UHGV virus genome: UHGV-1360109
Length of the DNA stretch: 25,357 nucleotides
Source: a virus
Reading direction: 5' to 3' (one strand)
The translations under genes and the position numbers were made by a program. The stretch's first letter is position 1. Each line of letters starts with the position of its first letter. Below are positions 4,261 through 23,196 of the stretch, piece after piece. Under the pieces are notes generated by a model. That model worked only from the letters and a program-made list of their open reading frames with translations. It was not told where the DNA came from and ran no database searches.

Positions 4261-4350
4261 TTAACCAATAACGTGCAATGGCTGTCTTTATGAGGCCTGG
4301 CACCCTATTGCCTTCCGATGGGCTGAACATCGAGTAAACAGGGGTAACAA

Positions 4351-5244
4351 ATGGACCAGATGGCAGAAAACACACCAGAAGTTGAAATAGAAACCGATAC
4401 ATCAGAGCAGATTCCTGATGATGTCGAACTGGCTGAAGAAGTCGAAACAGAAGATGGCAGTGAGTCCTCCGGCAATGATGCAGAGGAAGCTACTGAAACT
4501 GATGACGACGAATCAGAACAGGAATTCTACTTTGGTGACGAAAAGCTGGATTCGCCAACCAGCGAAGATGGCGCTGAGCATGGACTGGTAAAACACCTGC
4601 GCAAGACGATTAAAGAGAAAGACCGCGAGCTGAAAGAGCTGATGCGTCAGTCTCAGAAACCCGTCGAGCAGCAGCCGGTAATCACTCAACCACCGCGAAT
4701 GCCAAAACTGGATGATGAGGACATCGGTTTCGATGAAGAAATCTACCAGCAACGCATGGCTAAGTGGGCAGAGGATAACGGCAAGTACCAGCAACAGGAG
4801 ATGGCTCGCAAGCAGAAGGTGCAGGAGCTTCAGGCTGCCTATCAAGAGCGATTATCCAAATATCAGCAACGTGTTAAGGCTCTCAAGGTTCCTAGCTATC
4901 AGGAAGCTGAACAGGCCGTACTCGAGGAAATCTCCATCGAGACACAAAACGCGATCCTGTTTGAGTCAGAGAAGCCGGAAATCGTTGTTCTGGCACTCGG
5001 TCGCAACGCTGAACTGCGCAAGCAACTGGCAGAAGCTACCAACCCCGTAGCAATTGGTCGTCTGCTGGAACGTATCGAATCGAAGGCCAGAATCATGCCA
5101 AAAGCAAAAACCACGGCAGCCACAACCCCGACAGTTAAGGGGAGCAACGGCGCAGTAATCAATAACCTCGACAAACTGAAAGCCAAAGCGCTGGAAACTG
5201 GTGACTGGACGCCGTATTTCGCCGCTAAAAGGCAAAAAAAATAA
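4351..5244 (+). CDS. scaffolding protein (P22 gp8-like)
   Basis: 297 aa; very acidic N-terminus, coiled-coil-like middle, basic C-terminus (LDKLKAKALETGDW...KRQKK) resembling the coat-binding end of P22 scaffold; sits between portal and coat; AGGGG RBS. Confidence 0.85.
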   Translation: MDQMAENTPEVEIETDTSEQIPDDVELAEEVETEDGSESSGNDAEEATETDDDESEQEFYFGDEKLDSPTSEDGAEHGLVKHLRKTIKEKDRELKELMRQSQKPVEQQPVITQPPRMPKLDDEDIGFDEEIYQQRMAKWAEDNGKYQQQEMARKQKVQELQAAYQERLSKYQQRVKALKVPSYQEAEQAVLEEISIETQNAILFESEKPEIVVLALGRNAELRKQLAEATNPVAIGRLLERIESKARIMPKAKTTAATTPTVKGSNGAVINNLDKLKAKALETGDWTPYFAAKRQKK

Positions 5245-5262
5245 CCTATCGGAGCATTAAGC

Positions 5263-6528
5263 ATGGCTAACCAATTAGTAAAAGACCTTGAAATCATGTT
5301 CGAAAACTACGTTGAAGGCTTTGAGGCCGCCTGCGTAGTTTCCCGTAACGCTAAAAAATTCCGTCCCGGTGATACAGCAATGCAGCGAGTAGGTGATGTT
5401 CTGTATCGTCCGCAGCATTACCACATGAACATTGAGGAGGGCTTGGACCTCAGCGAAAAAACATCAACAGCACTGGTTCAGCGCCTTGTTCCTTCTGTGT
5501 TCAAGGAGCCGAAAAACATTCTGTACACTCTGGATGCGCGTGAAATGCGTGACCCTGAACATAAAACTGAAGCTGGTCGAGCCGCAGGTATGCGCCTTGC
5601 TGCACAGATTGACTCTGACCTGATTTCCATGGTCACGCAGCGTGCTACTAACGTGGTCGCAGTTCCTGACTCAGCAACTGGCTCGCGTGGCCTTGCCTTG
5701 TGGAATGGTGCGGCAGATATTGATGCCACCATGACGGCGATTGGTGTGCCGCAGGGTATCAACCGTCGCTCTTTCTGGAACCCCTTCAACTACAAAGACC
5801 TTGCTGGCGAGCTTGGTCACCGTGCCTACGCTCAGGGCGCAACCATGACAGCATACGAAAAAGCGCAAATCCCTCCGGTTGCTTCCTTCGATAGCTACAA
5901 GACCGATATTTCCGGTCGTGTTCCGGAGGGTAAGACTGTAGAAAATGGCATTAAGCTGACTGAAGAACCTAAGCACAAGGTTGAAGCGAAAGATGTTAAT
6001 GGTATGCCTGTTGATAACCGACAGGGGACAATTAAGGTATCTGCTGCGGGTTTGCAGGTTGGCGATGCGTTTACCATCGCAGGTGTGAATTCCGTACACC
6101 AGATCACCAAAGATACCACCGGGCAACCGCAGGTATTCCGCGTTCTGGCAGTAGACACAGCAGGAACCACCGTAACAATCTCTCCGAAAATTCTGCCGCC
6201 TAACAACACGGATACCGCCAGCCGTCCATATGCAAACGTTGATGCTAATGCGGCAAATAATGCAGTAATCACCATTCTCAACAAAAAAGCCGCACCGGCT
6301 AACCTGTTCTGGGCTGATGGTTCTGTTGAGCTGATGTACGGCAAACTGGCGTTCCCGACTGGTCAGGGTCCACAGGTAATGACTGCAACCACCGAGCAGG
6401 GCGCTACGCTGATCATGTCTTACGCCTTCGACCACATCAAAGGCGTAACCACTGCGCGTTTCACCACTCTGTACGGTTGCTCTGTACTTGTTCCTGAATA
6501 TACGGGCATCGTTATTGCCGGGCAGTAA
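5263..6528 (+). CDS. major capsid (coat) protein, P22 gp5-like
   Basis: 421 aa after the scaffold gene; segment YANVDANAANNAVITILNKKAAPANLFWADGS resembles the P22 coat YANV...FWADD region; followed by a strong terminator. Confidence 0.9.
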   Translation: MANQLVKDLEIMFENYVEGFEAACVVSRNAKKFRPGDTAMQRVGDVLYRPQHYHMNIEEGLDLSEKTSTALVQRLVPSVFKEPKNILYTLDAREMRDPEHKTEAGRAAGMRLAAQIDSDLISMVTQRATNVVAVPDSATGSRGLALWNGAADIDATMTAIGVPQGINRRSFWNPFNYKDLAGELGHRAYAQGATMTAYEKAQIPPVASFDSYKTDISGRVPEGKTVENGIKLTEEPKHKVEAKDVNGMPVDNRQGTIKVSAAGLQVGDAFTIAGVNSVHQITKDTTGQPQVFRVLAVDTAGTTVTISPKILPPNNTDTASRPYANVDANAANNAVITILNKKAAPANLFWADGSVELMYGKLAFPTGQGPQVMTATTEQGATLIMSYAFDHIKGVTTARFTTLYGCSVLVPEYTGIVIAGQ

Positions 6529-6535
6529 TTTTATT

Positions 6536-6558
6536 GGGGCTTCGGCCCCATTTTTATT
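6536..6558 (+). terminator. rho-independent terminator after the coat gene
   Basis: GGGGC-TTCG-GCCCC hairpin followed by ATTTTTATT. Confidence 0.75.
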
Positions 6559-6569
6559 GGGAGAAGACA

Positions 6570-6758
6570 ATGGCACGAACAATGCTCTATAAGCCTGGCA
6601 ACATGATCACCTGTGGTCAGTTTGCTGTCGATTACATCATCGTTGATGACGAAGAAGTTAAATCTCACCTGAAAAAAGGCTGGGTAAAAACTCCTGAAGA
6701 AACCGCAACGAAGCAAAAAGTGGCTAAGGCGGAAGAAGATGGCGAAAACGAAGGGTGA
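6570..6758 (+). CDS. small hypothetical protein between coat and gp4
   Basis: 62 aa from ATG 6570 with GGGAGAAG RBS; the ORF-track start at 6534 lies inside the terminator hairpin, so the internal start is preferred; no family recognised. Confidence 0.5.
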   Translation: MARTMLYKPGNMITCGQFAVDYIIVDDEEVKSHLKKGWVKTPEETATKQKVAKAEEDGENEG

Positions 6759-7200
6759 TCTCGTTCTAAAGGCTTTACGAAAAGCCGGGCTGTATTCCAA
6801 TGCCACGTTGACAGATGCTGACCCTCAGGCAATTGAAGATGCCATTAATGACCTCGAAGACATGATGGCAGCATGGCAGGCTAAAGGTATCGAGCTTGGA
6901 TATCAGTTTGCTGATACAGAAAACGGCATCATGCCGTTACCTGACGATGATTCAGGTATCCCTGCATGGGCAAATGATGGCGTCGCTTTGAAACTCGCTG
7001 TGCAAGTGTGCATGGATAACGTCATTCAGCCGTCAGACGCTCTCCTTACCGCTGCTGACAGTGCATATCAAACAATCTGTATCGCTTTAACCAAAATACC
7101 ACCACTTGAGCGGCGAAATGATATGCCTCGCGGGGCGGGGTTAAAAAGCGCGTTTACGTGGAATCGGTTTTACATCGAGAAAGATGATCCGAGTACGTGA
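6739..7200 (+). CDS. head completion / tail accessory factor, P22 gp4-like
   Basis: 153 aa; N-terminus MAKTKGDLVLKALRKAGLYSNATLTDADPQAIEDAINDLEDMMAAW resembles P22 gp4; conserved position. Confidence 0.85.
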   Translation: MAKTKGDLVLKALRKAGLYSNATLTDADPQAIEDAINDLEDMMAAWQAKGIELGYQFADTENGIMPLPDDDSGIPAWANDGVALKLAVQVCMDNVIQPSDALLTAADSAYQTICIALTKIPPLERRNDMPRGAGLKSAFTWNRFYIEKDDPST

Positions 7201-7209
7201 GGTGAATAA

Positions 7210-8628
7210 ATGCCGATTCAGCAACTTCCGCTTATGAAAGGTGTCGGCAAAGACTTTCGAAACGCCGACTATATCGACTATCTGCCAGTGAATATGCTGG
7301 CTACGCCCAAAGAAATACTCAACAGCAGCGGATATCTTCGCTCATTCCCGGGCATTGCCAAACGTTCTGATGTGAACGGCGTATCGCGGGGCGTCGAGTA
7401 CAACATGGCGCAGAATGCTGTTTATCGCGTATGTGGTGGTAAGCTGTACAAAGGAGAAAGTGAAGTCGGTGACGTCGCCGGAAGTGGTCGCGTATCAATG
7501 GCGCATGGTCGAACATCTCAGGCTGTAGGCGTTAATGGTCAACTGGTCGAGTATCGCTATGATGGCACGGTTAAAACCGTCTCAAACTGGCCTACAGACA
7601 GCGGATTCACGCAGTATGAGTTAGGCTCAGTCCGCGACATTACGCGATTACGTGGGCGTTATGCGTGGTCAAAAGACGGTACTGATTCATGGTTTATCAC
7701 TGACCTTGAAGACGAATCTCATCCTGACCGCTACAGCGCACAATATCGCGCAGAATCGCAGCCGGACGGCATCATCGGCATCGGAACATGGCGAGACTTC
7801 ATCGTCTGCTTTGGCTCATCGACGATTGAATATTTCTCCCTGACGGGCGCAACCATTGTTGGTGCCGCTTTGTATGTCGCCCAGCCATCGCTGATGGTGC
7901 AGAAAGGCATCGCCGGAACCTACTGCAAAACGCCGTTTGCTGATTCGTATGCGTTCATCAGCAATCCGGCAACAGGTGCGCCGTCTGTGTACATCATCGG
8001 CTCCGGTCAGGTGTCACCAATCGCCAGCGCGAGCATTGAGAAAATCCTCCGCTCCTACACTGCTGATGAACTGGCTGATGGCGTGATGGAATCGTTGCGC
8101 TTTGATGCTCATGAGTTGCTGATTATCCACCTTCCGCGCCATGTTCTCGTGTACGACGCATCTTCAAGCGCCAATGGTCCGCAATGGTGTGTGCTGAAAA
8201 CAGGCTTGTATGACGATGTGTACCGCGCTATCGACTTCATTTACGAAGGCAATCAGATAACGTGCGGAGATAAGCTGGAATCGGTTATCGGCAAATTGCA
8301 GTTCGATATCAGCAGCCAGTATGGGCTACAGCAAGAACACCTGTTGTTTACACCACTCTTCAAAGCTGAGAACGCCAGATGTTTTGATCTGGAAGTTGAA
8401 TCATCGACTGGTGTCGCTCAGTACGCTGACCGCCTGTTCCTCTCTGCAACCACTGACGGCATCAATTACGGACGTGAGCAGATGATTGAGCAGAATGAAC
8501 CGTTCGTTTACGACAAACGCGTTTTGTGGAAGCGAGTAGGGCGCATCAGGAAAAATGTCGGCTTCAAATTGCGCGTTATCACGAAGTCACCTGTCACTCT
8601 GTCTGGCGCTCAGATAAGGATCGAGTAA
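7210..8628 (+). CDS. tail accessory factor, P22 gp10-like
   Basis: 472 aa, the same length as P22 gp10; GAGGTGA RBS; conserved order gp4-gp10-gp26. Confidence 0.88.
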
Positions 8629-9329
8629 TGGCTGATTCGAATCTCAACACCCCTGTTATTGTGCAGGCGACGCGGCTCGATACATCAATCCTTCCACGCA
8701 ATATATTCAGCCAGTCTTACCTGCTGTATGTCATTAATCAGGGGGCTGATGTCGGCGCAATTGCCGGGAAGGCAAATCAGGCTGGTCAGGGCGCTTACGA
8801 TGCTCAGGTGAAAAACGATGAACAGGACGTCGAACTGGCAGATCACGATTCAAGAATCACCGCAAACACAAAAGCGATAAATCTCCTTGAGGTCAGGTTA
8901 ACAACCGCCGAAGTGAAGATAGTCGTACTGCGTAGCGATGTTGATTACTTGCTGGATGAGGTTATCGATATTCAGGCGCATCTGGTCACTGTTGACAAAA
9001 GACTGGATGGCGTAGAAAGCGATGTATCTGACATTAAGAGTGATTACGTATCGAAAACCGTAACCAAATTGCAGTCTCTTGCGTCACCGTTGGATGTAAA
9101 AACATCATATTCAGTTGATGGAATTCAGGTTGTTGGAGCAAGAAATACCGGATGGACTGCAGCCACAGGTACACCTCTTCTTGGCTCATTCAACGCTAAC
9201 CAGTCATACACGGTCGGCACTACGTACACACAATCCGAAGTCGCAGCTATCGCTACAGGTTTGGAGCAGGCGCGGCAGCGTATTCTGGCGCTTGAAACAG
9301 CACTTAGATTACATGGGTTGATTGACTGA
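8628..9329 (+). CDS. tail needle (P22 gp26-like)
   Basis: 233 aa from ATG 8628, which overlaps the gp10 stop; N-terminus [84 protein letters not shown] and C-terminus ALRLHGLID resemble P22 gp26; the ORF-track start at 8526 is an upstream in-frame extension. Confidence 0.9.
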
Positions 9330-9784
9330 TGATTACATTCAAACCAACGCGAAACATCGACCTGATAGAAGCTGTCGGAAATCACCCTGACATTATTGCC
9401 GGGAGCAACAACGGTGATGGATACGACTACAAGCCTGAATGCCGTTACTTTGAGGTTAACGTGCACGGTCAGTTTGGCGGCATTGTTTACTATCAGGAGA
9501 TTCAGCCGCTTACATTCGATTGCCACGCCATGTACCTGCCAGAGGTTCGCGGATTCAGCAAGGAAATCGGGCTGGCGTTCTGGCGATACATTCTGACTAA
9601 CACCACCGTTCAGTGCGTCACGTCGTTCGCTGCACGCAAATTCCGCCACGGGCAGATGTACTGCGCAATGATTGGCCTTAAGCGTGTAGGAACCATCAAG
9701 AAATACTTCAAGGGCGTGGATGACGTGACTTTTTACAGCGCAACACGCGAAGAACTAATCGACTTCCTGAATCACGGGAGATAG
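9329..9784 (+). CDS. virion-associated protein in the gp14 slot
   Basis: 151 aa; start overlaps the gp26 stop; sits where P22 gene 14 lies (26-14-7-20-16); the sequence itself is not recognised. Confidence 0.55.
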   Translation: MITFKPTRNIDLIEAVGNHPDIIAGSNNGDGYDYKPECRYFEVNVHGQFGGIVYYQEIQPLTFDCHAMYLPEVRGFSKEIGLAFWRYILTNTTVQCVTSFAARKFRHGQMYCAMIGLKRVGTIKKYFKGVDDVTFYSATREELIDFLNHGR

Positions 9785-9786
9785 CC

Positions 9787-10479
9787 ATGTTATATGCATT
9801 TAAGCTGGGCAGAAAACTGCGCGGCGAGGAACCTTATTGCCCTGAAAAAGGCGGGAAAGGTGGCAGTTCTGATAAAAGTGCAAAGTATGCCGCAGAAGCT
9901 CAGAAGTATGCCGCAGACCTGCAAAATCAGCAGTTCAACACCATCATGAACAACCTGAAGCCGTTTACTCCTCTGGCTGGGAAGTATGTCGGCAGCCTTG
10001 AGAACTTATCGTCTCTGGAAGGGCAAGGTCAGGCACTTAACCAGTATTACAACTCTCAGCAGTATAAAGACCTTGCAGGTCAGGCTCGCTATCAGAGTCT
10101 GGCGGCAGCGGAAGCAACAGGTGGATTGGGTTCCACCGCAACCAGTAATCAGTTAGCAACAATCGCACCAACGCTTGGTCAGCAATGGCTGTCTGGACAA
10201 ATGAACAATTACAACAACCTGGCAAATATCGGTCTTGGCGCTCTTCAGGGACAGGCAAACGCCGGGCAAACATATGCCAACAACATGAGTCAGATTTCAC
10301 AGCAAAGCGCGGCGCTGGCGGCGGCAAACGCCAACCGACCGTCAGCATTGCGGCAGGGTGTTAGTGGTGCTGCATCCGGTGCGCTTTTGGGTGGTGGTAT
10401 AGCCAGTGCTCTCGAGCTATCAACTCCGTGGGGTGCTGGTATCGGTGCTGGTCTTGGTCTGCTTGGTTCGCTGTTTTAA
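9787..10479 (+). CDS. ejection (internal virion) protein, P22 gp7-like
   Basis: 230 aa; Gly/Ala/Gln-rich with hydrophobic Gly-rich C-terminus; conserved position and size. Confidence 0.82.
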   Translation: MLYAFKLGRKLRGEEPYCPEKGGKGGSSDKSAKYAAEAQKYAADLQNQQFNTIMNNLKPFTPLAGKYVGSLENLSSLEGQGQALNQYYNSQQYKDLAGQARYQSLAAAEATGGLGSTATSNQLATIAPTLGQQWLSGQMNNYNNLANIGLGALQGQANAGQTYANNMSQISQQSAALAAANANRPSALRQGVSGAASGALLGGGIASALELSTPWGAGIGAGLGLLGSLF

Positions 10480-10489
10480 GGGGTAATCA

Positions 10490-11905
10490 ATGGCTACTTG
10501 GCAACAGGGTATTAATTCTGGTGGTTTTCTGGCTGGCATCGGTACGCAAAATGAGAATGCGCCAAAGGCAAGCGACATTAACGCAACGCTTGGTCTGATC
10601 CGCGAAAACAATGAACTGGCTCGATCAGGTGCAAATAACGTTGGTCTGACCGCGTTACGTGGTCTGGCTGGAGTTGCTGATATTTATAAGCAGGAACAGC
10701 AACAGAAAGCTATTAGTGCGTTCAATAAGGTTCACGCTGATGCATGGGCTTCTGGTGATCCATCGGGACTATTTAAGTTTGCCCAGGAAAATCCAGCGTT
10801 TGTTGCACAGGCACAACAGGCGTTTTCCGGTCTTAATGAGCAGCAACGCAACGATATGGGCGAGTTAGCCATGAGGGCTAACGTCGCTCTTTCTCAGGGA
10901 CCGGAAGCCTACAGTAAATTCATTACTGACAACAAGGACGGGTTAAATCGCGTGGGGGCGAATGCTGACTGGATGATTCAGACAGGTATCCAGAATCCAG
11001 AGCAGCTATCACACATGCTGACTACTATGTCTCTCGGTGCGCTTGGACCAGAAAAGGCGTTTGCTGTTCAGGATAAGATGGCTGGTCGTGAAATTGACCG
11101 AGGCAGGCTGGCAGAGACAATCCGCAGCAATCAGGCTGGAGAAGCACTTCAGGCGAGAGGGCAAAACCTTTCCTATCAGTCAGCAATGACTGGACACAAT
11201 ATCGCAGCACAACGCTTGGCTCTGGATCAGCAAGAGTTCGGGTTTAAGATGCAGCAAGCACAGGAAAAGGCTCAGCAGTTGATTAGCGAAGCACCTAAGC
11301 TGTCAGTAAACATGGAAAAAGGCATCGAGACGGCTGTAAACAATGCTACAGCATCATCAAACTCAGCCAATTCTATGAGTGCGCTTGCTCAACAGTTCAG
11401 AGCAGAAAAACCAACGACAGGTTTGTTCGGTAACGCACAGAACATGTTCGCAAAACTTACCGGAAGCGATACAACATTGCGTGATTTGCGCATCCGCCAA
11501 AATGCCCTTGTTAACAGTCAGGTTCTTAAATTCCTACCTCCCGGCCCCGCAACGGATAAAGACGTTGAGATCGTTCGGCAGGGTGCACCAACTGACATGG
11601 ATAACCCTGAGACGGTCGCAAGATGGCTTGATGCGATGGCAAACCTTGAGCGACGAAACGCGCAGTTTAATGAGTTTAAAGCCGAGTGGATGAGCGCGAA
11701 TGGCAATCCAGGACAATCGCGTAATGGCGGTCAGATATTGGGGTTGGATGTTAAAAAAGGTGAATCATTGGGGAGTGCCGTTAAGCGGTATATGTCAATG
11801 AATACTGACGCAGCGCCAGCACAAGATTCGACACCTTCAGGAGAACCACGGAATCAGGTTGGATCATATACCTCAAAATCAGGCATTCAATTTACGGTGG
11901 AATGA
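10490..11905 (+). CDS. ejection protein, P22 gp20-like
   Basis: 471 aa, the same length as P22 gp20; AAGGGG RBS; conserved order. Confidence 0.82.
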
Positions 11906-13743
11906 TGAAAGTAACTGCAAACGGTAAGACATTTACCTTTCCTGATGGTACGAGCACCGAAGATATTGGCACCGCCATTGATGAGTATTTTGCTGGTCAG
12001 GCTGTTCAGCAACAAACAGTTAATCAGGCCAATAATGCACCAACACGGGAAGAACCATCATTGATGCAACAAGCTGGCGATTGGCTCACTGGTGGTCAAA
12101 GTGCAGGGCAAATTGCAGAACAGGCTGGTCGTGGTCTGGTAAACATACCATTTGACGTATTGCAGGGCGGCGCAAGTCTGATTAATGCAATCAGCCAGGG
12201 GCTTGGTGGACCCAAGGTTTTGGATGATGTTTATCGTCCAGTAGACAGACCGACAGACCCCTACGCACAAGCCGGTGAAACAATTGGTGGGTATTTAGTT
12301 CCAGGAGTTGGAACGGCAGGAAGCATGGCTATTGGATCACTGGCAGAGGCCGCAAATCAGAAAGGCGATTTCGCACAAAATGCAGCTAAAAATGCCGGAG
12401 TTAACCTTGCCGCTCAGGGTGTTCTTTCCGCCGCAGCAAAGGGAATAGGGCGTGGAATAACGGCTATAAAAGGTGATATTGCGCCAGAAGTGGCGAAGAA
12501 AATTGCCACATCAGAATCGATGGGCGTGACACCAATGACATCTGATGTTATCCCGCCGAAAAATGCTTTCACTCGCGGCCTTACTCAGGATGCCGAGGGG
12601 GCTTTGCTCGGGACAGGCTCAAAGCGAGCGGAGCAATATGCAACGCGTAGTAAGCTGGTAAGTAATTATTTTGACCGTTTTGGTGAGTACAACCCTGATG
12701 ATGTAGTGAAATCTCTGACCACCACGTTAAGGGGGAGGAAGGATGCCGCTGGCGCTGTTATCAATGACGTCACCAATAAAATGGGTAATGCCGCAGTTGA
12801 TACCACAAATACCATGAATGCTCTGAATACAGCGATCGCAAGACAGGAACGACTTGGGACGTCTGCCAATCAAAGCCTGCTTACATCCTTGCGTAACCTA
12901 CGTGAAGAATTAGCAAACCCTGCAACTGATTTGGATGTTACGTTTGATCTCTTGCGTCAGCACAGAACAGCATTTAGATCTAATGTTCAGGGAGATGCTA
13001 TGGTCTTCCCCAACCAGGCAAAAGCAGCTACCAATATGGTAGAGAATGCAATGTCAAAAGACCTTCGTAACGCAGTTGCTAAAAACCTCGGTGCATCAGA
13101 CGCAGCAAAATACCTTAAAGCAAATTCCGATTATGCAAACGTTTATAATAAGGTGCTTAATAAAAACATTGCTAACAAACTCAACAAGGCAAGCAGTGAA
13201 GCCAGTCCTGAACTTATAAATACCGTTGTATTAAGCAGAAAACCATCTGACGTGAAACGAATCTGGAGCGCACTGGATGATAAAGGGAAAGATGCTATGC
13301 GTGCAGCTTACGTCAGCAAAATAGCGGAAAAGGCCGGTGACTCTCCAGCCAAGTTCATCACTGAAGTTAATAAGCTGAAATCTCAGTCAGGCGGTGAAAT
13401 TTACAACACTATTTTTTCTGGAAAGCACATGAAAGAACTTGATGCTCTTCATGAAGTTCTGCAGCAAACAGCAAGGTCAGACACCGCAAATGTAGTAACT
13501 CAGACGGGGCAATCGCAAGCCAACAGGATAAGGACGATTGGCGCAACTGCGACTCTTGGCGTATCAATGGGGCTTGAGGCTGGTTTCGGTGCAATGATGC
13601 GCTTGTATGAGTCCAAAGCAGCAAGGAATGCGCTCTTACGTCTGGCAAACACCAAAGCAGGAACACCAGCCTATGAAAGAGCGTTGAGTAACGCTGCAAA
13701 TGCCATCAGGCCGCTGCTTGCTACTGAGGCAACACAGCAGTAA
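11902..13743 (+). CDS. ejection protein, P22 gp16-like
   Basis: 613 aa; ATGA overlap with gp20; last gene of the ejection-protein trio. Confidence 0.82.
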
Positions 13744-13767: not shown

Positions 13768-14157
13768 TTAACATTTTCTTTTTACTTTTCCAACAAAAGC
13801 TTTGGTTGAATCCATATTCCCATAACCAGAAATGGTTTTTGACATTAAAACTGTTCCAGTAGGATGTATTACCCATGAGTCGATAACGCGTTGAGTTTCG
13901 CCATTCGCGCCGATTCCTATGATGGAGTTTTTAGACAATGCTTTGTAAGCCATGCCGCCCGCATCTGTCCCAGAATATGTGATGCTGGCATCTTCACCGC
14001 TTGTCTTAATGATGAATGTTCCACTAAAACCATCTTCTTCCGGATGGAAATTATTTCGTTCTGAATAGCTTATTCCGCGCATATCTCCAACGACCCAGCA
14101 CTCTGCTGTAGCCCCAAAAGATATGAATAAGAACATAGCAGCAAGAAATTGCTTCAC
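13768..14157 (-). CDS. small exported protein of unknown function (cargo gene)
   Basis: GTG start at 14157 preceded by a perfect TAAGGAGGT SD; N-terminus VKQFLAAMFLFISFGATA|EC is a signal peptide with an A-T-A signal-peptidase site; mature part has Cys near both ends; the longer ORF-track version (to 14373) has an implausible His/Cys-rich extension. Confidence 0.6.
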   Translation of the reverse strand: MKQFLAAMFLFISFGATAECWVVGDMRGISYSERNNFHPEEDGFSGTFIIKTSGEDASITYSGTDAGGMAYKALSKNSIIGIGANGETQRVIDSWVIHPTGTVLMSKTISGYGNMDSTKAFVGKVKRKC

Positions 14158-14187
14158 ACCAACCTCCTTAGTTTTGTGCAGGATACC

Positions 14188-14553
14188 ATGAAAAAAGTTA
14201 ACATTGGAAACGTACCAAAGATGCTCGTTCCGCTCTTTGAGAGCGGTACAATTGTGTTTTGTAGAGACTTTCCAGAATGGCAACGCCTGCATCAAAAACT
14301 TGGTGTGGACGTGCAGGACTCGGACGCCAACGGAGCGTCTCATACAATGAGCAGCGAGAATGGTGTTTTGCATGTGATAGGCGTGTTCAATGGCAAACTA
14401 TCTACTATTGCCCATGAGTGCGCTCACATGGCATTCGATATCTGCTCAAGGGTCGGTGTTGATGTTGAACCAGGAAGAGCCAACGAGACTTACTGCTACT
14501 TAATGAGCAGGCTTGTTGAGTTCTGCGAGCGACATATCAAAAAGCCGGAGTGA
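14188..14553 (+). CDS. small putative zinc metallopeptidase (HExxH motif), family unassigned
   Basis: 121 aa from ATG 14188 (MKKVNIGNVPKMLVPLFESG...); HECAH motif in IAHECAHMAFDICSRVGVDVEPGRANE with Glu 14 and 20 residues downstream; the ORF-track start at 14149 is a TTG. Confidence 0.55.
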   Translation: MKKVNIGNVPKMLVPLFESGTIVFCRDFPEWQRLHQKLGVDVQDSDANGASHTMSSENGVLHVIGVFNGKLSTIAHECAHMAFDICSRVGVDVEPGRANETYCYLMSRLVEFCERHIKKPE

Positions 14554-14884: not shown

Positions 14885-15421
14885 TCAAACAACCCACCAG
14901 TTTGCCTGATTGGATGCCAGCCTTGCAGTTTTTATGGAATTAATTATGCCATGCTCAAGAGCCTTGTTAGCATCCAAAATGGTCGAGTCTGCTATCAGGG
15001 ATGCCCACCTAATATGGGTTCCGATGTCGATATTGAACGTCTCAACGAAGCGATCAAGATCGTTATCGAGGCATTTCCCGTACTCTCTCAATCTGGCATG
15101 GTCGGCGGCTGGGGAGGCAAAGCACCATAATAGAGGATGTAACAGGAATCTTGATAATGGGTTTGCGAAACGTTCTGAGCCAGCCAGGAAAACGATATTA
15201 GCTATGGATTCAACATTGCTTATGTTGTGAGTTCTAACGGTAACAGGGAGTGACTTAAGAAAGTTATACGCAGTAAAGCCAGCGGCAGTTTCCCCTCCCT
15301 GACTTGATATATGGATATTTAATTCAGTTGCGCCTTGAGATAATGCGGTGAGACAGTGGTTCTGAAGTTGCCCAACAGTGGCAGTGTTAACGGGGCATAA
15401 GAAATGAATTGTGTGCAGCAT
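14885..15421 (-). CDS. ClpP/SppA-fold serine peptidase homologue (cargo gene, co-transcribed with mnt)
   Basis: 178 aa; ELNIHISSQGGETAAGFTAYNFLKSLPVTVRTHNISNVESIANIVFLAGSERFANPLSRFLLHP aligns by eye with E. coli ClpP [67 protein letters not shown]; candidate nucleophile Ser and His are in place; start ATG shares one base with the mnt stop (TAATG). Confidence 0.75.
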   Translation of the reverse strand: MLHTIHFLCPVNTATVGQLQNHCLTALSQGATELNIHISSQGGETAAGFTAYNFLKSLPVTVRTHNISNVESIANIVFLAGSERFANPLSRFLLHPLLWCFASPAADHARLREYGKCLDNDLDRFVETFNIDIGTHIRWASLIADSTILDANKALEHGIINSIKTARLASNQANWWVV

Positions 15422-15675
15422 TATTTATCATCCTTGCCATAAATCTTTTTAAGTGTCTCAAACACAACGGCCTTGAACTGCTCTGCTTGCTGATCAGCCA
15501 AGCGTTCAGCTTCGTCTCGATAGCCTGCAATCGGTGATGGCTTTGAGAGAGCATCCTGAACGATTTGTAATAACTCAGAGTTCATTGACCTTCCGTTAGC
15601 CTCTGCTCTTAATTTCAATTTTTCTCTTACTTCCAAAGGCATACGGAAGTTAAAGTGCGGATCGTTTCTAGCCAT
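15421..15675 (-). CDS. mnt: Mnt repressor (ribbon-helix-helix)
   Basis: 84 aa; MARNDPHFNFRMPLEVREKLKLRAEANGRSMNSELLQIVQDALSKPSP closely resembles P22 Mnt; GGGGTGA RBS; divergent from arc across the operator region. Confidence 0.92.
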   Translation of the reverse strand: MARNDPHFNFRMPLEVREKLKLRAEANGRSMNSELLQIVQDALSKPSPIAGYRDEAERLADQQAEQFKAVVFETLKKIYGKDDK

Positions 15676-16205: not shown

Positions 16206-17129
16206 ATGACGAGTGTAGCAATTGCAGAACATACAATCAACGTTCCATTCCACGGAACAAATCTCTTTTTGGTCAGCATTAACAATGAACCTTACGTTCC
16301 TATGAAACCCGTTGTAGAAGGCATGGGTATGGTTTGGGCTGCTCAATTTGTTAAATTAAAACAGAGATTTGTCAAAGGTATTTCGGAAATCGAAATACCT
16401 TCTGCTGGCGGTAAACAGTTAATGATATGCCTTGCCTTTCGTAAGTTTGCGGCTTGGCTTTCAAGCATTCAGCCAAACAAAGTCCGCCCTGAAATCCGCG
16501 ACAAGGTAATCCAGTATCAGGAAGAGTGTGACGATGTGCTCTACGAGTACTGGACTAAAGGCTATGTAGTTAACCCACGCAAATCTAAAAAGGCGTTGCC
16601 GGGTAAAATCACCACTGAACAGCAGGAAGCCATTAAACAACTCGTCATGAGTCGCGGTCAGTCTCTGCCAAAAGAAAAACAGGCTAAGGCGATGATCACC
16701 ATGTGGTCGTCACTGAAATCCCATTTTGGATGTTCGTACAAAGAAATCAGTGAGGAGCAGTTTACAGAAGCACTGTCACTTGCAGCTCGAGTTCCGCTTG
16801 AAGGTGAGTTCATCGGCAAACAAGAGAAGAAAACCAACGAGCTTTCTGCAAAAGAAGCAAACAGCCTTGTATGGTTATGGGATTATGCCAACCGCTCACA
16901 GGCATTATTCCGCGAACTGTATCCGGCGCTAAAACAAATTCAATCGAACTATTCCGGCAGATGCTACGACTACGGTCATGAATTCTCGTATGTTATCGGA
17001 ATGGCGAGAGATGTTTTAATCAACCATACACGAGATGTTGATATTAATGAGCCAGACGGACCAACGAATCTTTCCGCATGGATGAGACTTAAGAATAAAG
17101 AATTACCTCCTTCAGTACATAACTACTGA
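16206..17129 (+). CDS. ant: antirepressor Ant
   Basis: 307 aa, close to P22 Ant (300 aa); position after arc; AGGA RBS; followed by a strong terminator. Confidence 0.82.
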
Positions 17130-17148
17130 TAGATAACCAACGCAACGA

Positions 17149-17171
17149 CCCAGCTTCGGCTGGGTTTTTTT
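17149..17171 (+). terminator. rho-independent terminator after ant
   Basis: CCCAGC-TTCG-GCTGGG hairpin followed by TTTTTTT. Confidence 0.8.
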
Positions 17172-17229
17172 ATGCCCAAAATTCACCGTAGCCATGCTTC
17201 GGCGATTCCTTGTATCTGGAGCAAATTAA

Positions 17230-20175
17230 ATGACAGACATTACAGCCAATGTTGTGGTAAGCATGCCTTCGCAACTCTTCACTATGGCGCGTTCTTTTAA
17301 AGCCGTAGCTAATGGCAAAATTTATATCGGTAAAATTGACACTGATCCTGTAAATCCAGAAAACCAGATTCAGGTCTATGTGGAGAATGAAGACGGTTCT
17401 CACGTTCCTGTTTCGCAACCAATAATCATTAACGCTGCTGGATATTCTGTATATAACGGACAGATTGCCAAATTCGTTACCGTGCAAGGCCATTCTATGG
17501 CTGTTTATGATGCGTATGGTGCGCAGCAGTTCTATTTTCCTAATGTGCTGAAGTATGACCCTGATCAACTACGGCAGCAATTAGAAGACCCAGATGGAGC
17601 GAATAAATACCCAAAACTTCAGATAGCAAGATGGAGAGACAGTTATGATGTAAGAGGTTGGGGGGCTATTGGTGATGGTGTTCATGATGATACATCAGCT
17701 CTATCAGAATTACTTTCTGTTGCAACAGGTGGTGAAAAGATAGATGGGCGAGGGCTTACTTTTAAAGTATCAACTCTTCCGGATGTCAGTCGATTTAAAA
17801 ATGCTCGTTTTTTATTTGAGAGAATACCGGGCCAGCCTCTTTTTTATGCTTCTGAAGATTTTATCCAGGGAGAGTTATTTAAAATTACAGATACACCGTG
17901 GTACAACGCCTGGACGCAGGATAAAACGTTTGTATATGACAATGTCATCTATGCGCCTTTTATGGCTGGAGACCGCCATGGTGTAAATAACCTCCATGTT
18001 GCATGGGTTCGCTCAGGAGATGACGGGAAGACCTGGACAACGCCGGAATGGCTTACAGATTTACATGAAAACTATCCCACAGTTAACTATCACTGCATGA
18101 GTATGGGGGTTGTCAGAAATCGCCTTTTTGCTGTAATTGAGACGCGGACCGTGAGAGGAAATAAACTGCAGGTTGCAGAGTTGTGGGATCGCCCAATGAG
18201 TCGCAGCCTTCGCGTTTATGGTGGTATAACGAAAGCAGCAAATCAGCAAGTCGCTTATATTCGCATTACTGATCACGGATTATTTGCTGGTGATTTTGTC
18301 AACTTCTCAAACTCTGGTGTTACAGATGTTACCGGGAATATGACGGTGACTACTGTTATTGATAAAAATACCTTTACAGTTACGACGCAAAATACCCAGG
18401 ATGTGGATCAGAATAACGAGGGTAGATACTGGAGTTTTGGTACATCATTTCACTCGTCACCATGGAGAAAAACCAGTCTTGGAACTATTCCTTCTTTTGT
18501 TGACGGAAGCACTCCTGTTACTGAGATTCACAGTTTTGCGACGATTAGCGATAACAGTTTTGCTGTTGGCTACCATAATGGTGATATTGGTCCACGCGAG
18601 CTTGGGATACTCTATTTCTCTGATGCTTTCGGTTCTCCTGGTAGCTTTGTTCGCAGACGCATACCTGCAGAATATGAGGCGAATGCATCTGAGCCATGTG
18701 TAAAATATTATGATGGCATTCTGTATCTGACGACCAGGGGGACATTAAGTACTCAACCCGGTAGTTCATTGCACAGAAGCTCTGATTTAGGTACATCATG
18801 GAATTCTCTTCGCTTCCCAAATAATGTTCATCACTCAAACCTTCCTTTTGCCAAAGTTGGCGATGAGCTGATTATTTTTGGCAGTGAGCGCGCATTTGGT
18901 GAGTGGGAAGGAGGAGAACCTGATAACCGTTATGCAGGAAATTATCCAAGAACATTTATGACCAGAGTTAACGTCAATGAGTGGAGTCTGGATAATGTAG
19001 AGTGGGTTAATGTTACTGATCAGATTTATCAGGGCGGAATAGTTAACTCTGCGGTTGGTGTTGGTTCAGTTTGTATCAAAGACAACTGGCTGTACTACAT
19101 TTTCGGTGGGGAAGATTTTCTAAACCCATGGAGCATAGGGGATAACAACAGAAAATATCCTTATGTTCACGATGGTCACCCGGCTGATTTGTATTGTTTC
19201 AGGGTGAAAATTAAACAGGAAGAATTTGTTTCAAGGGATTTTGTCTACGGAGCCACTCCTAACAGAACGCTTCCTACTTTTATGTCGACGTCAGGCGTGA
19301 GGACGGTTCCTGTACCCGTTGATTTCACAGATGATGTTGCCGTCCAGTCACTGACTGTCCATGCAGGTACATCAGGACAAGTTCGCGCGGAAGTCAAACT
19401 TGAGGGTAATTACGCCATTATTGCGAAGAAAGTACCGTCTGATGATGTTACCGCTCAGAGATTAATCGTTAGCGGCGGTGAAACAACGTCTTCAGCAGAT
19501 GGTGCAATGATAACGTTGCATGGTTCCAGAAGCAGTACTCCACGTCGCGCGGTATATAACGCACTCGAACATCTTTTTGAGAACGGAGATGTTAAACCTT
19601 ATCTTGATAATGTAAATGCTCTTGGTGGTCCGGGAAACAGGTTCTCGATAGTTTATCTTGGCTCCAATCCTGTGGTTACCAGTGACGGAACATTAAAGAC
19701 AGAGCCGGTCTCTCCTGACGAAACATTGCTGGATGCCTGGGGTGACGTCAGGTATATCGCTTATAAATGGCTGAACGCTGTCGCTATAAAGGGGGAAGAA
19801 GGGGCGAGGATACATCATGGTGTAATCGCGCAGCAACTTCGTGATGTTCTTATTTCTCACGGACTCATGGAAGAAGAAAGCACAACATGCCGCTATGCGT
19901 TTCTTTGCTATGACGATTATCCCGCAGTATATGATGACGTCATTACTGGCCAAAGGGAAATGCCGCTGACTGATAATGACGGGAGCATCATTGTTGATGA
20001 GGATGATAATCCAGTGATGGTAATGGAAGACATCATTGAGCGCGTTGAAATAACGCCAGCAGGATCTAGATGGGGGGTCAGGCCTGATCTCTTATTCTAT
20101 ATCGAGGCGGCATGGCAGCGCAGAGAAATGGATAAGATAAAAGCTAGGTTAGACTTAATAGAAGGGAAGCACTAA
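17230..20175 (+). CDS. tailspike: P22 gp9-like head-binding N-terminus fused to an endosialidase body with a C-terminal intramolecular chaperone domain
   Basis: 981 aa; first ~110 aa ([59 protein letters not shown]...[15 protein letters not shown]...VLKYDPDQ) match the P22 tailspike N-terminus; Asp-box motifs SGDDGKTW and SSDLGTSW; TSDGTLK near the C-terminal ~160 aa fits the Ser-Lys auto-cleaving chaperone pattern; GGAG RBS. Confidence 0.88.
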
Positions 20176-20321
20176 ATGTTTCGTTGGCGTCAAAAATATG
20201 AACTGCTCACATAAAGAAGTAAGTACATTGGCAAAAAACATTGACGTCAACGAAATTAAATATAAAACATCATGCAGACATATTACCAATATTAATATAA
20301 GGTAATAAAAATATAATTTAC

Positions 20322-20348: not shown

Positions 20349-20654
20349 ATTAACCGCGGTAATGGATAAATTATTAATGTTTTTAGATTGTGAACGATAT
20401 CATATTGTGCGGAAGTAGTGAAGTAACCATGTAAAATGATTGTTTCATAGCCTATGAGACACACAAGGCTTTGTGCTCTTCGATAGTTGTTAAGGCGGAT
20501 CACTCTACCTTCTCATCAATCCAGTCCGCCCCCACTGCATCATTTCTCTGCGCTTATCGAGATACTGAGCATGGTTGTAAATTCAACTAACCCAGTCCGT
20601 TGACAAAAAATTAGCGCAAGAGGACAAAAAATCACCTTGCGCTAATGCTCTGCC

Positions 20655-20885
20655 TCAGGTCACTAATACTATCTAAGTAGTTGATTCATAGTGACTGGAT
20701 ATGTTGTGTTTTGTCGCGTTTTGCAGTCTATTATTTAATCATTAAGTAATCTAATACTATGATTTTTAAATTATTTATGTGGTTTTGTCATCCTTAAGGT
20801 GAATAAGTTGTATATTTAAAATATCTTTTGTTATCAATGAATTAATGTAAGCAGGTCATTATTAGTCAAAATAAAATCATTTGTC
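20655..20885. other. lambda-like attP region (arm-type Int sites); core not pinpointed
   Basis: CAGGTCACTAATACTATCTAAGTAGTTGATTCATAGTGACTGGATATGTTGTGTTTT (P arm) and AGGTCATTATTAGTCAAAATAAAATCATTTG (P' arm, overlapping the int 3' end) closely match lambda attP arm sequences; the central ~100 bp differs from lambda. Confidence 0.7.
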
Positions 20886-21950
20886 GATTTCAATTTTGTC
20901 CCATTCCCGTCCACGGCTGTCCCTATACCGCGCCGCCATTGAATCTGATTTATGCCCGAGAAGACGTTGAGCAAACTTATCGCCAATCTGGTTCCGGTAT
21001 AGCCTCGCTGACAGGCTACGCAGTTCATGGAATGTTGGCGGGTTTCCATCAAATGAGAGTCCAGATGCATTTCTCGCCTTTGTAAAATACTTTGATACTG
21101 TTTTCGGGGAAAGCGGATCGTGATGCTTTGATGCGATTATAGTTTCACTGCTGCTGGCCTCCCTGCATTTCTGTAGTGTATCAGCCAATGAGATATTGAG
21201 CGCGTCAATCGTTAGCGTTAGCGGAATGGCGAGTTTAGCCCCTGTTTTACTCTGTTCAATGTGAAGATGGTTGTCGTTTATGTCTGACCATTTCATTCTG
21301 CACAAATCGCCGACTCTCTGCCCTGTAACGACGGCCAAATCCATCGCCAGCCTTAGCCAGATAGGGAGAGGTTCGGCTGCATGGTAAATCTCGACATACT
21401 CATTAGCTGTCAGCCTTGAGCGCCTTACTTCTGACTTTGCTGTACGGGTTGCTGTTACCGGATTCGTTGCCACATGCCCCTCGGCTATTGCTTCACGAAA
21501 AACGTCAACAAGGGTTGACCTGATTAATTTTGCGGAAGCTGCTTTACCTTCCGCTACGTAGGTGTTTAGCATTGCTGCCACATCTTTCGTTGATATGTCA
21601 GTGAGCGGTTTGTCCGGCAATTTTCTTCGGATTGCCCTGATTTTGCTGGCGTAGTCGAGTAGAGTTTTCGGCCTGATCCCCCTTTCGGTGAGGATTCTTT
21701 CATATCGGTCAAGCCACACATGAAGAGTGATTGCGTCACCGCCTTTAATTCTGTCTATCAGTGATTTGCGTCCGCTGTCTGAGAGTAACTCAATATTGGC
21801 CTGTATTGCTTCAGTGATTGCTATCCTCCTGTCTCGGCCTAATCCAAACTCTTTACCCGTCCTTGGGTCCCTGTAGCAGTAATATCCATTGTTTCTTATA
21901 TAAAGGTTAGGGGGTAAATCCCGGCGCTCATGACTTCGCCTTCTTCCCAT
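20877..21950 (-). CDS. int: integrase, lambda Int family tyrosine recombinase
   Basis: 357 aa; N-terminus MGRRRSHERRDLPPNLYIRNNGYYCYRDPRTGKEFGLGRDRRIAITEAIQAN and C-terminus HELRSLSARLY...LLGHKSD...YRD.RGREWDKIEI match lambda Int as I recall it. Confidence 0.95.
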   Translation of the reverse strand: MGRRRSHERRDLPPNLYIRNNGYYCYRDPRTGKEFGLGRDRRIAITEAIQANIELLSDSGRKSLIDRIKGGDAITLHVWLDRYERILTERGIRPKTLLDYASKIRAIRRKLPDKPLTDISTKDVAAMLNTYVAEGKAASAKLIRSTLVDVFREAIAEGHVATNPVTATRTAKSEVRRSRLTANEYVEIYHAAEPLPIWLRLAMDLAVVTGQRVGDLCRMKWSDINDNHLHIEQSKTGAKLAIPLTLTIDALNISLADTLQKCREASSSETIIASKHHDPLSPKTVSKYFTKARNASGLSFDGNPPTFHELRSLSARLYRNQIGDKFAQRLLGHKSDSMAARYRDSRGREWDKIEIDK

Positions 21951-22231: not shown

Positions 22232-22855
22232 TTAAAATTCGAATTGTCTCGCCCGAAGGCTTTTCAACATTGGTCTTGCCCGTTCGAAAACGGCGCTTGC
22301 CTGGTCAAGTCGTGTCGCCTCCCTGAGCAGTACATCTCTGTTTTTCGTCACCGCATAGAAGGTTTCAAACGCAATGTCATACAGCTTACTCGCGTATGAT
22401 GAGTTAAGTTCCTTCATTATCGGGTACAGGCGTTTGCAGATGTCCTGTGCATTCTCCATCTGTACCTGCATGTAGCAGAGGAGGATGATTTCCTCGTCTG
22501 TGAATTGCTGCGCTGGTTGCATGCTGCGAAGTTTCTTTTCGCACTCGATGAAGTATCGGCGTATCTGGCGGCCTTTTTCGTTGCGCTCGACCATCGCAGT
22601 TTCTTTGGCCGTATCGAGGGTGAGGTGATAGTCTTTGCTACGGCGATCGCCTCCTCGACCTTTGATTTCCCGATTTGGGGAAACCAAAATATAGTCCTGA
22701 TTTTCAACGAAACCATATTCAGCAATGCGTTCTGTAATCCACGATGCAAAGCGTTTACCTACCCCAAGAAAAGTATGTAAATCGCGAGCATTAACGAGAA
22801 GAGTGGTTTCGTTGGCGATAGTGCCGTTGAATACGGGGATGAGTTGAATAGCCAT
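22232..22855 (-). CDS. antirepressor-like protein (Bro-N/AntA-type N-terminal domain)
   Basis: 207 aa from ATG 22855 with AGGAG 9 nt upstream; N-terminus MAIQLIPVFNGTIANETTLLVNARDLHTFLGVGKRFASWITERIAEYGFVENQDYI resembles phage AntA/Bro-N domains; ORF-track start at 22891 is a longer alternative. Confidence 0.65.
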   Translation of the reverse strand: MAIQLIPVFNGTIANETTLLVNARDLHTFLGVGKRFASWITERIAEYGFVENQDYILVSPNREIKGRGGDRRSKDYHLTLDTAKETAMVERNEKGRQIRRYFIECEKKLRSMQPAQQFTDEEIILLCYMQVQMENAQDICKRLYPIMKELNSSYASKLYDIAFETFYAVTKNRDVLLREATRLDQASAVFERARPMLKSLRARQFEF

Positions 22856-23196
22856 AATCATGACTCCTGACGTTTTAGTATTGACTGCCACCTTAGTGGG
22901 GTGGCGGGCTTCAACTACCGCGTCAGACGGCGGAGCTTATTTCCCGAAAGGGTGTTCTATTAGGCTCTCTCGACCCGCCATAGATATGGCGATACCTGTA
23001 AACAGGCATAAAAAAGCCGCAAAGCTATCGGGTGCGGTTGACCGCTGACGTTGTAGTGCGGTCAGTATGCGATAGCTCTGGCGGATTTGTCAAATCATGT
23101 AGCCTTTATCCTGCTGTAAGCCGCGCCATTCGGGATTTTCCCCATATTTGGGGAAAACTATCTGCGAAGTATTCACCTTTGACGGCAAGTTGCAGG

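Follow-up and report, generated by a model that had tools for sequence, protein, structure and literature searches.

The viral genome UHGV-1360109, which we analysed over its whole stretch of 25,357 nucleotides (the window), involves one long reading frame behind an antirepressor gene, and this frame raises the question of which capsule its product might attack and in what kind of phage it travels. The first-pass annotation had read the product as a chimera between a P22-type head-binding domain and an endosialidase. We found that the frame runs from ATG to stop with the same bounds as noted before and that it encodes a protein of 981 amino acids (Table 1). When we searched this protein with Pfam profiles, it was covered by six domains, the P22 head-binding domain being followed by the five others in the order of an endosialidase. 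Profiles and solved structures agree on the chimera: a P22-type head-binding domain is fused to a complete endosialidase and to a chaperone domain of the self-cleaving type.

Table 1. Features of the tailspike gene and of its surroundings in the window
Feature	Position (nt)	Strand	Remarks
Mnt/Arc repressor gene	15421..15675	-	Upstream of the tailspike gene
Ant, P22-type antirepressor gene	16206..17129	+	Directly upstream of the tailspike gene
Spacer between ant and tailspike gene	17130..17229	+	100 bp; 'bsq1 boundary sequence' in the CUS-3 annotation
Terminator-like hairpin after ant	17147-17166	+	Intergenic; terminator scan
Tailspike gene, complete, siaK1 allele	17230..20175	+	981 aa, 109.4 kDa precursor; 99.0% DNA identity to CUS-3 siaK1
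Head-binding (virion-attachment) domain, P22-type, aa 1-113	17230..17568	+	PF09008 Head_binding, profile 1-113/113, E=1.8e-66
Linker between head-binding domain and endosialidase module, aa 114-145	17569..17664	+	No Pfam domain
Endosialidase N-terminal extension, aa 146-212	17665..17865	+	PF12218 End_N_terminal, E=7.7e-37
Catalytic beta-propeller, six-bladed, aa 213-662	17866..19215	+	PF12217 End_beta_propel, profile 1-367/367, E=6.2e-233
Beta-barrel inside the propeller, aa 324-406	18199..18447	+	PF12195 End_beta_barrel, profile 1-83/83, E=1.6e-45
Predicted catalytic residues E488, R503, R554	18691-18693, 18736-18738, 18889-18891	+	Mapped from endoNF E581, R596, R647
Stalk domain, aa 663-817	19216..19680	+	PF12219 End_tail_spike, E=6.5e-78
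C-terminal intramolecular chaperone/self-cleavage domain, aa 818-981	19681..20172	+	164 aa, 18.7 kDa
Predicted Ser-Lys self-cleavage pair S818, K823	19681-19683, 19696-19698	+	endoNF S911, K916; Lys five residues on
Terminator-like hairpin downstream of the tailspike gene	20348-20329	-	Intergenic; terminator scan
attP core ATCCTTAAGGTGAATAAGTTG	20790-20810		Integration module in the window
Integrase, lambda-family, 357 aa, intact	20877..21950	-	Matches that of the VR50 torS/torT prophage

At the N-terminus, where the first ~110 residues had been assigned to the capsid-binding domain of P22 gp9, the Head_binding profile matched over its full length. The same region matched the N-terminal domains of Sf6 gp14 (7sg7) and of the P22 tailspike (8tvr, 1lkt), and when aa 1-118 were compared with such solved domains, E-values of 3.7e-66 (Sf6 gp14 tailspike) and 7e-53 (P22 tailspike) were obtained. 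The P22 and Sf6 matches stop at about aa 117-127 and the match with the endosialidase endoNF starts at aa 145-146, in line with the linker. From there on, endoNF of the lytic phage K1F (1v0e, 3gvl) aligns with aa 146-817 (E=0; 438/665 residues identical, i.e., 65.9%), the N-terminal extension aligning with 1v0e from chain residue 2 onwards. The C-terminal fragment of endoNF (PDB 3gw6) aligns with aa 698-979 (E=1.1e-92), and within the C-terminal domain the Peptidase_S74 profile (PF13884, 'Chaperone of endosialidase') matches aa 818-878 (E=2.8e-10), so that the ~160-residue region expected to resemble an auto-cleaving chaperone is indeed present. The two sizes given beforehand, ~110 and ~160 residues, are right to within a few residues. 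The E-values of these domain and structure matches exclude chance as an explanation.

Both sialidase Asp-boxes that had been announced were recovered, SGDDGKTW at aa 262-269 (nt 18013-18036) and SSDLGTSW at aa 517-524 (nt 18778-18801), and no other stretch of the protein fits the pattern S-x-D-x-G-x-x-[WFY]. For the active site of endoNF, we take E581, R596 and R647 together with H350 to be the relevant residues, in the numbering of Stummeyer 2005. In our alignment, H350, E581, R596 and R647 correspond to H250, E488, R503 and R554 of the tailspike, and all four are conserved. The offset of this mapping is -100 before and -93 after an insertion of 7 amino acids (FVDGSTP, aa 423-429), which the tailspike carries in addition to the endoNF sequence. 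The R554 site is marked independently by chain 3gvj, an R-to-A mutant whose Ala stands opposite R554, and this observation partially supports the numbering. In the stalk, the tailspike carries M760 at the position of endoNF Q853, which is presumably part of the polysialic acid binding site there; the CUS-3 enzyme also has a Met, and the two phages cannot be told apart by this position.

The final chain residue of the endoNF crystal constructs (1v0e, 3gvl) aligns with T817 at the end of the stalk, and it is here, at aa 817-823, that the expected TSDG...K motif reads TSDGTLK. Ser-Lys self-cleavage in the chaperone domains of endosialidases and a role of the GVIAQ motif in trimerisation have been described previously (PMC3742440), and the chaperone domain of the tailspike carries a GVIAQ motif at aa 864. 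From the sequence, we calculated masses of 109.4 kDa for the precursor, of 90.7 kDa for the mature subunit (aa 1-817) and of 18.7 kDa for the chaperone fragment. A review gives the mass of the CUS-3 enzyme as 109 kDa (PMC5380687) and we counted this agreement in favour of a CUS-3-type tailspike.

Compared with endoNF, the tailspike has in common the propeller with its nested beta-barrel, the stalk, the C-terminal chaperone, the catalytic residues and the Ser-Lys pair. However, endoNF attaches to the virion by an N-terminus of the T7 tail-fibre type, whereas the N-terminus of the tailspike is of the P22 head-binding type (PMC5380687). With the tailspikes of P22 (gp9), Sf6 (gp14) and HK620, it is the head-binding domain (aa 1-113) that is shared, and so is the location of the gene, which follows ant and closes the late region. 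The bodies of those three proteins are beta-helix endoglycosidases of O-antigen, whereas that of the window protein is a propeller of sialidase fold followed by a cleavable chaperone. Every feature of phage endosialidases, of the S74 chaperone domain and of P22-type tailspikes that can be tested on a sequence was found in the predicted protein.

The closest characterised relative is the siaK1 gene of the E. coli K1 prophage CUS-3 (CP000711.1), to which the tailspike gene is 99.0% identical at the DNA level over 100% of its length. Only 29 nucleotides differ and these are scattered along the gene. Both proteins comprise 981 residues, of which 971 are identical. The ten substitutions concern aa 9, 43, 73, 121, 207, 309, 366, 967, 968 and 969. 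Three of them fall into the head-binding domain and three adjacent ones are located near the C-terminus (aa 967-969). The remaining four are distributed singly over linker, N-terminal extension, propeller (R309) and beta-barrel (D366). None affects the mapped residues H250, E488, R503, R554, S818 and K823 or the GVIAQ motif. CUS-3 siaK1 (ABQ88383.1/CAJ29292.1) also resembles the window gene in its domain order, in the ant gene upstream and in the 'bsq1' boundary region. Its database record names the product an endosialidase tailspike and backs the endo-alpha-sialidase activity by direct-assay evidence (the record cites PMID 16689790); we took the experimental status of the CUS-3 enzyme from this GenBank annotation and from secondary citations.

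With a DNA match of 99% to a gene that is annotated and with 66% identity to crystal structures, the identity of the tailspike is settled, and the similarity to endoNF and to the CUS-3 tailspike that the first-pass annotation had proposed to look for is extensive on both sides. Its prediction of a tailspike degrading polysialic acid (K1) capsules is well supported by these identities. Judged by its sequence, the protein is an already known CUS-3-type K1 endosialidase tailspike. That the CUS-3 tailspike is a chimera has been in print since 2006, and it serves as a textbook case of tailspike module exchange (PMC5380687). According to the same review, the N-terminal domain is common to the tailspikes of CUS-3, HK620, Sf6 and P22, and the catalytic domain is common to CUS-3 and K1F, which have different N-termini.

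The surroundings of the gene point in the same direction. About 62% of the window matches CUS-3 and phiv205-1 at ~96% identity, and among the genes annotated in the matching records are those for terminase, portal, head completion and DNA transfer. On the strength of these matches, the window belongs to the P22-like genomes (Lederbergvirus), and the tailspike gene occupies in it the P22-type late-region position after the mnt/arc/ant (immI) genes. Terminator-like sites were enriched in the window (7 vs 2.8 expected) and only two of them are intergenic (Table 1). A promoter scan of the window yielded 12 promoter-like sites vs 11.0 expected; since this is no excess over chance, we do not claim a promoter for the tailspike gene.

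With its domain architecture, the conservation of the named residues, its near-identity to CUS-3 siaK1 and its place in a P22-like late operon, the gene very probably specifies a tailspike that destroys the receptor of its phage, a temperate P22-like podovirus whose hosts are K1-encapsulated E. coli. Its activity as an enzyme, its trimeric state, its cleavage and the host range of the phage we infer from two characterised relatives, CUS-3 and endoNF. By analogy, the 109-kDa precursor would form trimers, in which folding of the stalk would be nucleated by the C-terminal chaperone domain (aa 818-981). After folding, the S818/K823 pair would cut the chain at S818, which should free the 18.7-kDa chaperone and leave the 90.7-kDa mature subunit (aa 1-817). 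The P22-type N-terminal domain (aa 1-113) may then fix the trimer into the phage tail, and the beta-propeller, with E488, R503 and R554, would cleave internal alpha-2,8 linkages of the capsular polysialic acid, which could open a path for the virion across the K1 capsule and down to the outer membrane.

The distribution of the gene bears on the host range. Of 5,426 complete E. coli genomes, 181 have a copy of the tailspike gene at a coverage of 80% or more; well-known K1 strains are among the carriers, which include UTI89, IHE3034, NU14, UM146 and O7:K1 CE10. As hosts, the matching records give RS218, O18ac:K1:H7, O7:K1 CE10 and many 'serovar:K1' isolates, in line with the E. coli K1-like host that had been suggested. 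The exact protein sequence was also present in a public assembly (run SRR12234489). In the record of phage vB_EcoP-720R6, the same tailspike adjoins annotated biotin-synthesis genes.

The affiliation with CUS-3-type prophages, which had been proposed as well, holds for part of the genome: the tailspike allele is of the CUS-3 type, but its carrier is not CUS-3, lacks neuO, the phase-variable gene of a capsule O-acetyltransferase, and has a different integration module. Downstream of siaK1, CUS-3 carries neuO and the IntS integrase (argW site), whereas the window carries an attP and another integrase (Table 1). Searches of the window for the AAGACTC poly-psi array that goes with neuO and for tandem repeats yielded neither in this region. 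The alignment to CUS-3 indicates that neuO is absent as a single block; in CUS-3 this block is flanked on either side by an imperfect copy of A[T/A]TAAATATAAAA, and the window has one such copy, at 20255-20267. Such a contiguous junction lacking neuO is the minority form, occurring in 18 of 178 E. coli genomes that carry the region. CUS-3-like sequence continues downstream of the tailspike gene to about position 20582 and ends with an intS remnant, the frameshifted 3' end of the CUS-3 gene (~83 bp, ~20499-20582). This remnant indicates that the downstream region descends from a CUS-3-like ancestor.

For the integration module, we compared the prophage located between torS and torT of E. coli VR50 (NZ_CP011134.1). 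Its tailspike is 99.1% identical to that of the window, and it shares the downstream sequence without neuO, the intS remnant and the integrase. In VR50 the same phage is integrated and bounded by attL and attR, whereas the attP of the window is uninterrupted. The VR50 junctions (left GCACTTTAGGTGAATAAGTTG, right ATCCTTAAGGTGAAAAAGGTT) recombine at the attP core of the window, and from their sequences the crossover can be placed inside the common AGGTGAA (window 20797-20803). The attP core and the torS/torT site are those that we take to be the attachment site of phage HK022, and with this presumed link the integration module is HK022-type and stands in place of the CUS-3 integrase. The uninterrupted attP and the vegetative gene order indicate that the window is a phage or an excised form rather than the end of a prophage. 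We had also considered whether the window might be a prophage end adjacent to argW, but rejected this option since a tRNA scan of the window yielded 0 tRNA genes. Its identification as CUS-3 itself was rejected too, as the window shows neither the neuO/poly-psi features nor those of IntS (argW site). On these comparisons, the carrier phage is a mosaic relative of CUS-3 with the CUS-3 tailspike allele. The loss of neuO and the exchange of the integration module are the sole mildly new material in our data, and this arrangement already occurs in several sequenced E. coli genomes.

A conserved sequence need not belong to a functional phage, and CUS-3-like prophages are prone to decay, their tail and coat genes often being annotated as pseudogenes (PMC9659370); a close copy of the tailspike gene in strain M15 is broken by IS903B. 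The gene might in the same way be an inactive relic with an intact frame in a decaying prophage that no longer gives rise to a viable phage. We consider this unlikely, and in fact very much so: the frame is unbroken over 2,946 nt and retains all catalytic and cleavage residues, its 29 nucleotide differences from CUS-3 are spread over the gene, and the late genes flanking it are long intact reading frames. Moreover, the attP is intact, the gene order is vegetative and there are no prophage junctions in the window.

The substitutions that separate the protein from its relatives could, on the other hand, have shifted its substrate preference relative to CUS-3 and endoNF, either to O-acetylated polysialic acid or to the alternating alpha-2,8/2,9 polymer of K92. 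Two of them, R309 and D366, are situated in the propeller and the beta-barrel, and in a lineage without neuO, whose lysogens would not O-acetylate their capsule, selection on the tailspike could change. Nothing, however, ties these two positions to specificity. The protein is 99% identical to that of CUS-3, the mapped catalytic residues are untouched and the same allele family occurs across classical K1 strains, and we therefore give such a shift hardly any credence. A receptor-destroying tailspike directed against the K1 capsule is the reading that we retain.

For the carrier, we tentatively propose a viable and currently mobile K1-specific temperate phage, which would have exchanged the argW-site module for an HK022-type module directed to the torS/torT site and lost neuO; we rate this proposal somewhat short of even. 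If it holds, lysogens of such a phage would not O-acetylate, and in this way mask, the capsule receptor that the tailspike attacks. The neuO-less lineage could carry the endosialidase gene past the ST95 K1 strains, which are the classical carriers of CUS-3, and, being neuO-minus by nature, it would allow a comparison that bears on the proposed role of NeuO in superinfection exclusion.

The practical use of the gene is in annotation: it marks the window as a temperate phage of the P22-like kind that would infect K1-encapsulated E. coli, a group that includes neonatal meningitis and urinary tract strains. The tailspike adds one further allele from nature to those of an enzyme that serves as polysialic acid probe and as candidate anti-capsule agent, and the altered downstream module shows on a modest scale how phage mosaicism can surround a receptor-binding gene that is conserved.

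We aligned the window with CUS-3, a prophage of E. coli K1, in the region 3' of the tailspike gene. In CUS-3, the phase-variable capsule O-acetyltransferase gene neuO is located 3' of the tailspike gene, with imperfect copies of the direct repeat A[T/A]TAAATATAAAA on either side, whereas in the window neuO is absent as a single block and one repeat copy is retained. When we inspected the E. coli genomes holding this region, the contiguous neuO-less junction was found in only 18 of 178. This junction may reflect either a loss of neuO or the state before its insertion.

Features of the window, with positions in nucleotides
Feature	Position	Strand	Evidence or remark
613-aa ORF	11902-13743	+	
201-aa ORF	13768-14373	-	
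178-aa ORF, ClpP protease domain	14885-15421	-	PF00574, E=2.2e-11
neuO-less segment	20176-20330		Single repeat copy at 20255-20267; alignment to CUS-3
CUS-3 intS remnant, 3'-end, frameshifted, ~83 bp	~20499-20582		
attP core ATCCTTAAGGTGAATAAGTTG	20790-20810		Intact
Lambda-family integrase, 357 aa	20877-21950	-	Adjoins attP core
Second antirepressor-type gene	22232-22891	-	AntA + P22_AR_C domains

Between the tailspike gene and the new integration module, we found a remnant of the CUS-3 integrase gene intS, which is annotated as a pseudogene in E. coli strain VR50. This remnant is a marker of the module-replacement junction. The attP/integrase module of the window is presumably of the HK022 type. 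In VR50, the junctions of the prophage lying between torS and torT have AGGTGAA as their exact recombination point. Since the attP core is intact and the VR50 junctions recombine exactly at this motif, the window is in the vegetative (circular) gene order. Beyond int/xis, in the early-left region, the antirepressor-type gene is additional to the P22-type ant at 16206-17129.

The ClpP-domain ORF directly adjoins the mnt/arc immunity genes and, in a P22-like phage, is an unusual passenger for the immI region. The contig from run SRR12234489, in the public assembly of which the exact tailspike protein is present, carries this ORF too. The Pfam search yielded no match for the 613-aa and 201-aa ORFs, which lie on opposite strands; the former occupies the same place as the DNA-transfer (ejection) protein annotated in related P22-like records.

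Alignment of the tailspike with endoNF, the crystallised endosialidase of phage K1F, indicated Met at residue 760 (19507-19509) versus Gln853 in endoNF; this Gln853 contributes to the site in the stalk that binds polysialic acid. The CUS-3 tailspike also carries Met760, and thus this residue is a trait of the CUS-3 lineage and not specific for the window.

A tailspike gene sharing 98.5% DNA identity with that of the window was found in phage vB_EcoP-720R6 (ON470605.1, locus 3501-9946). This record is labelled as a phage genome; annotated biotin-synthesis genes adjoin the tailspike and, therefore, it contains host flank. Thus, ON470605.1 documents a further chromosomal site for phages bearing this tailspike.
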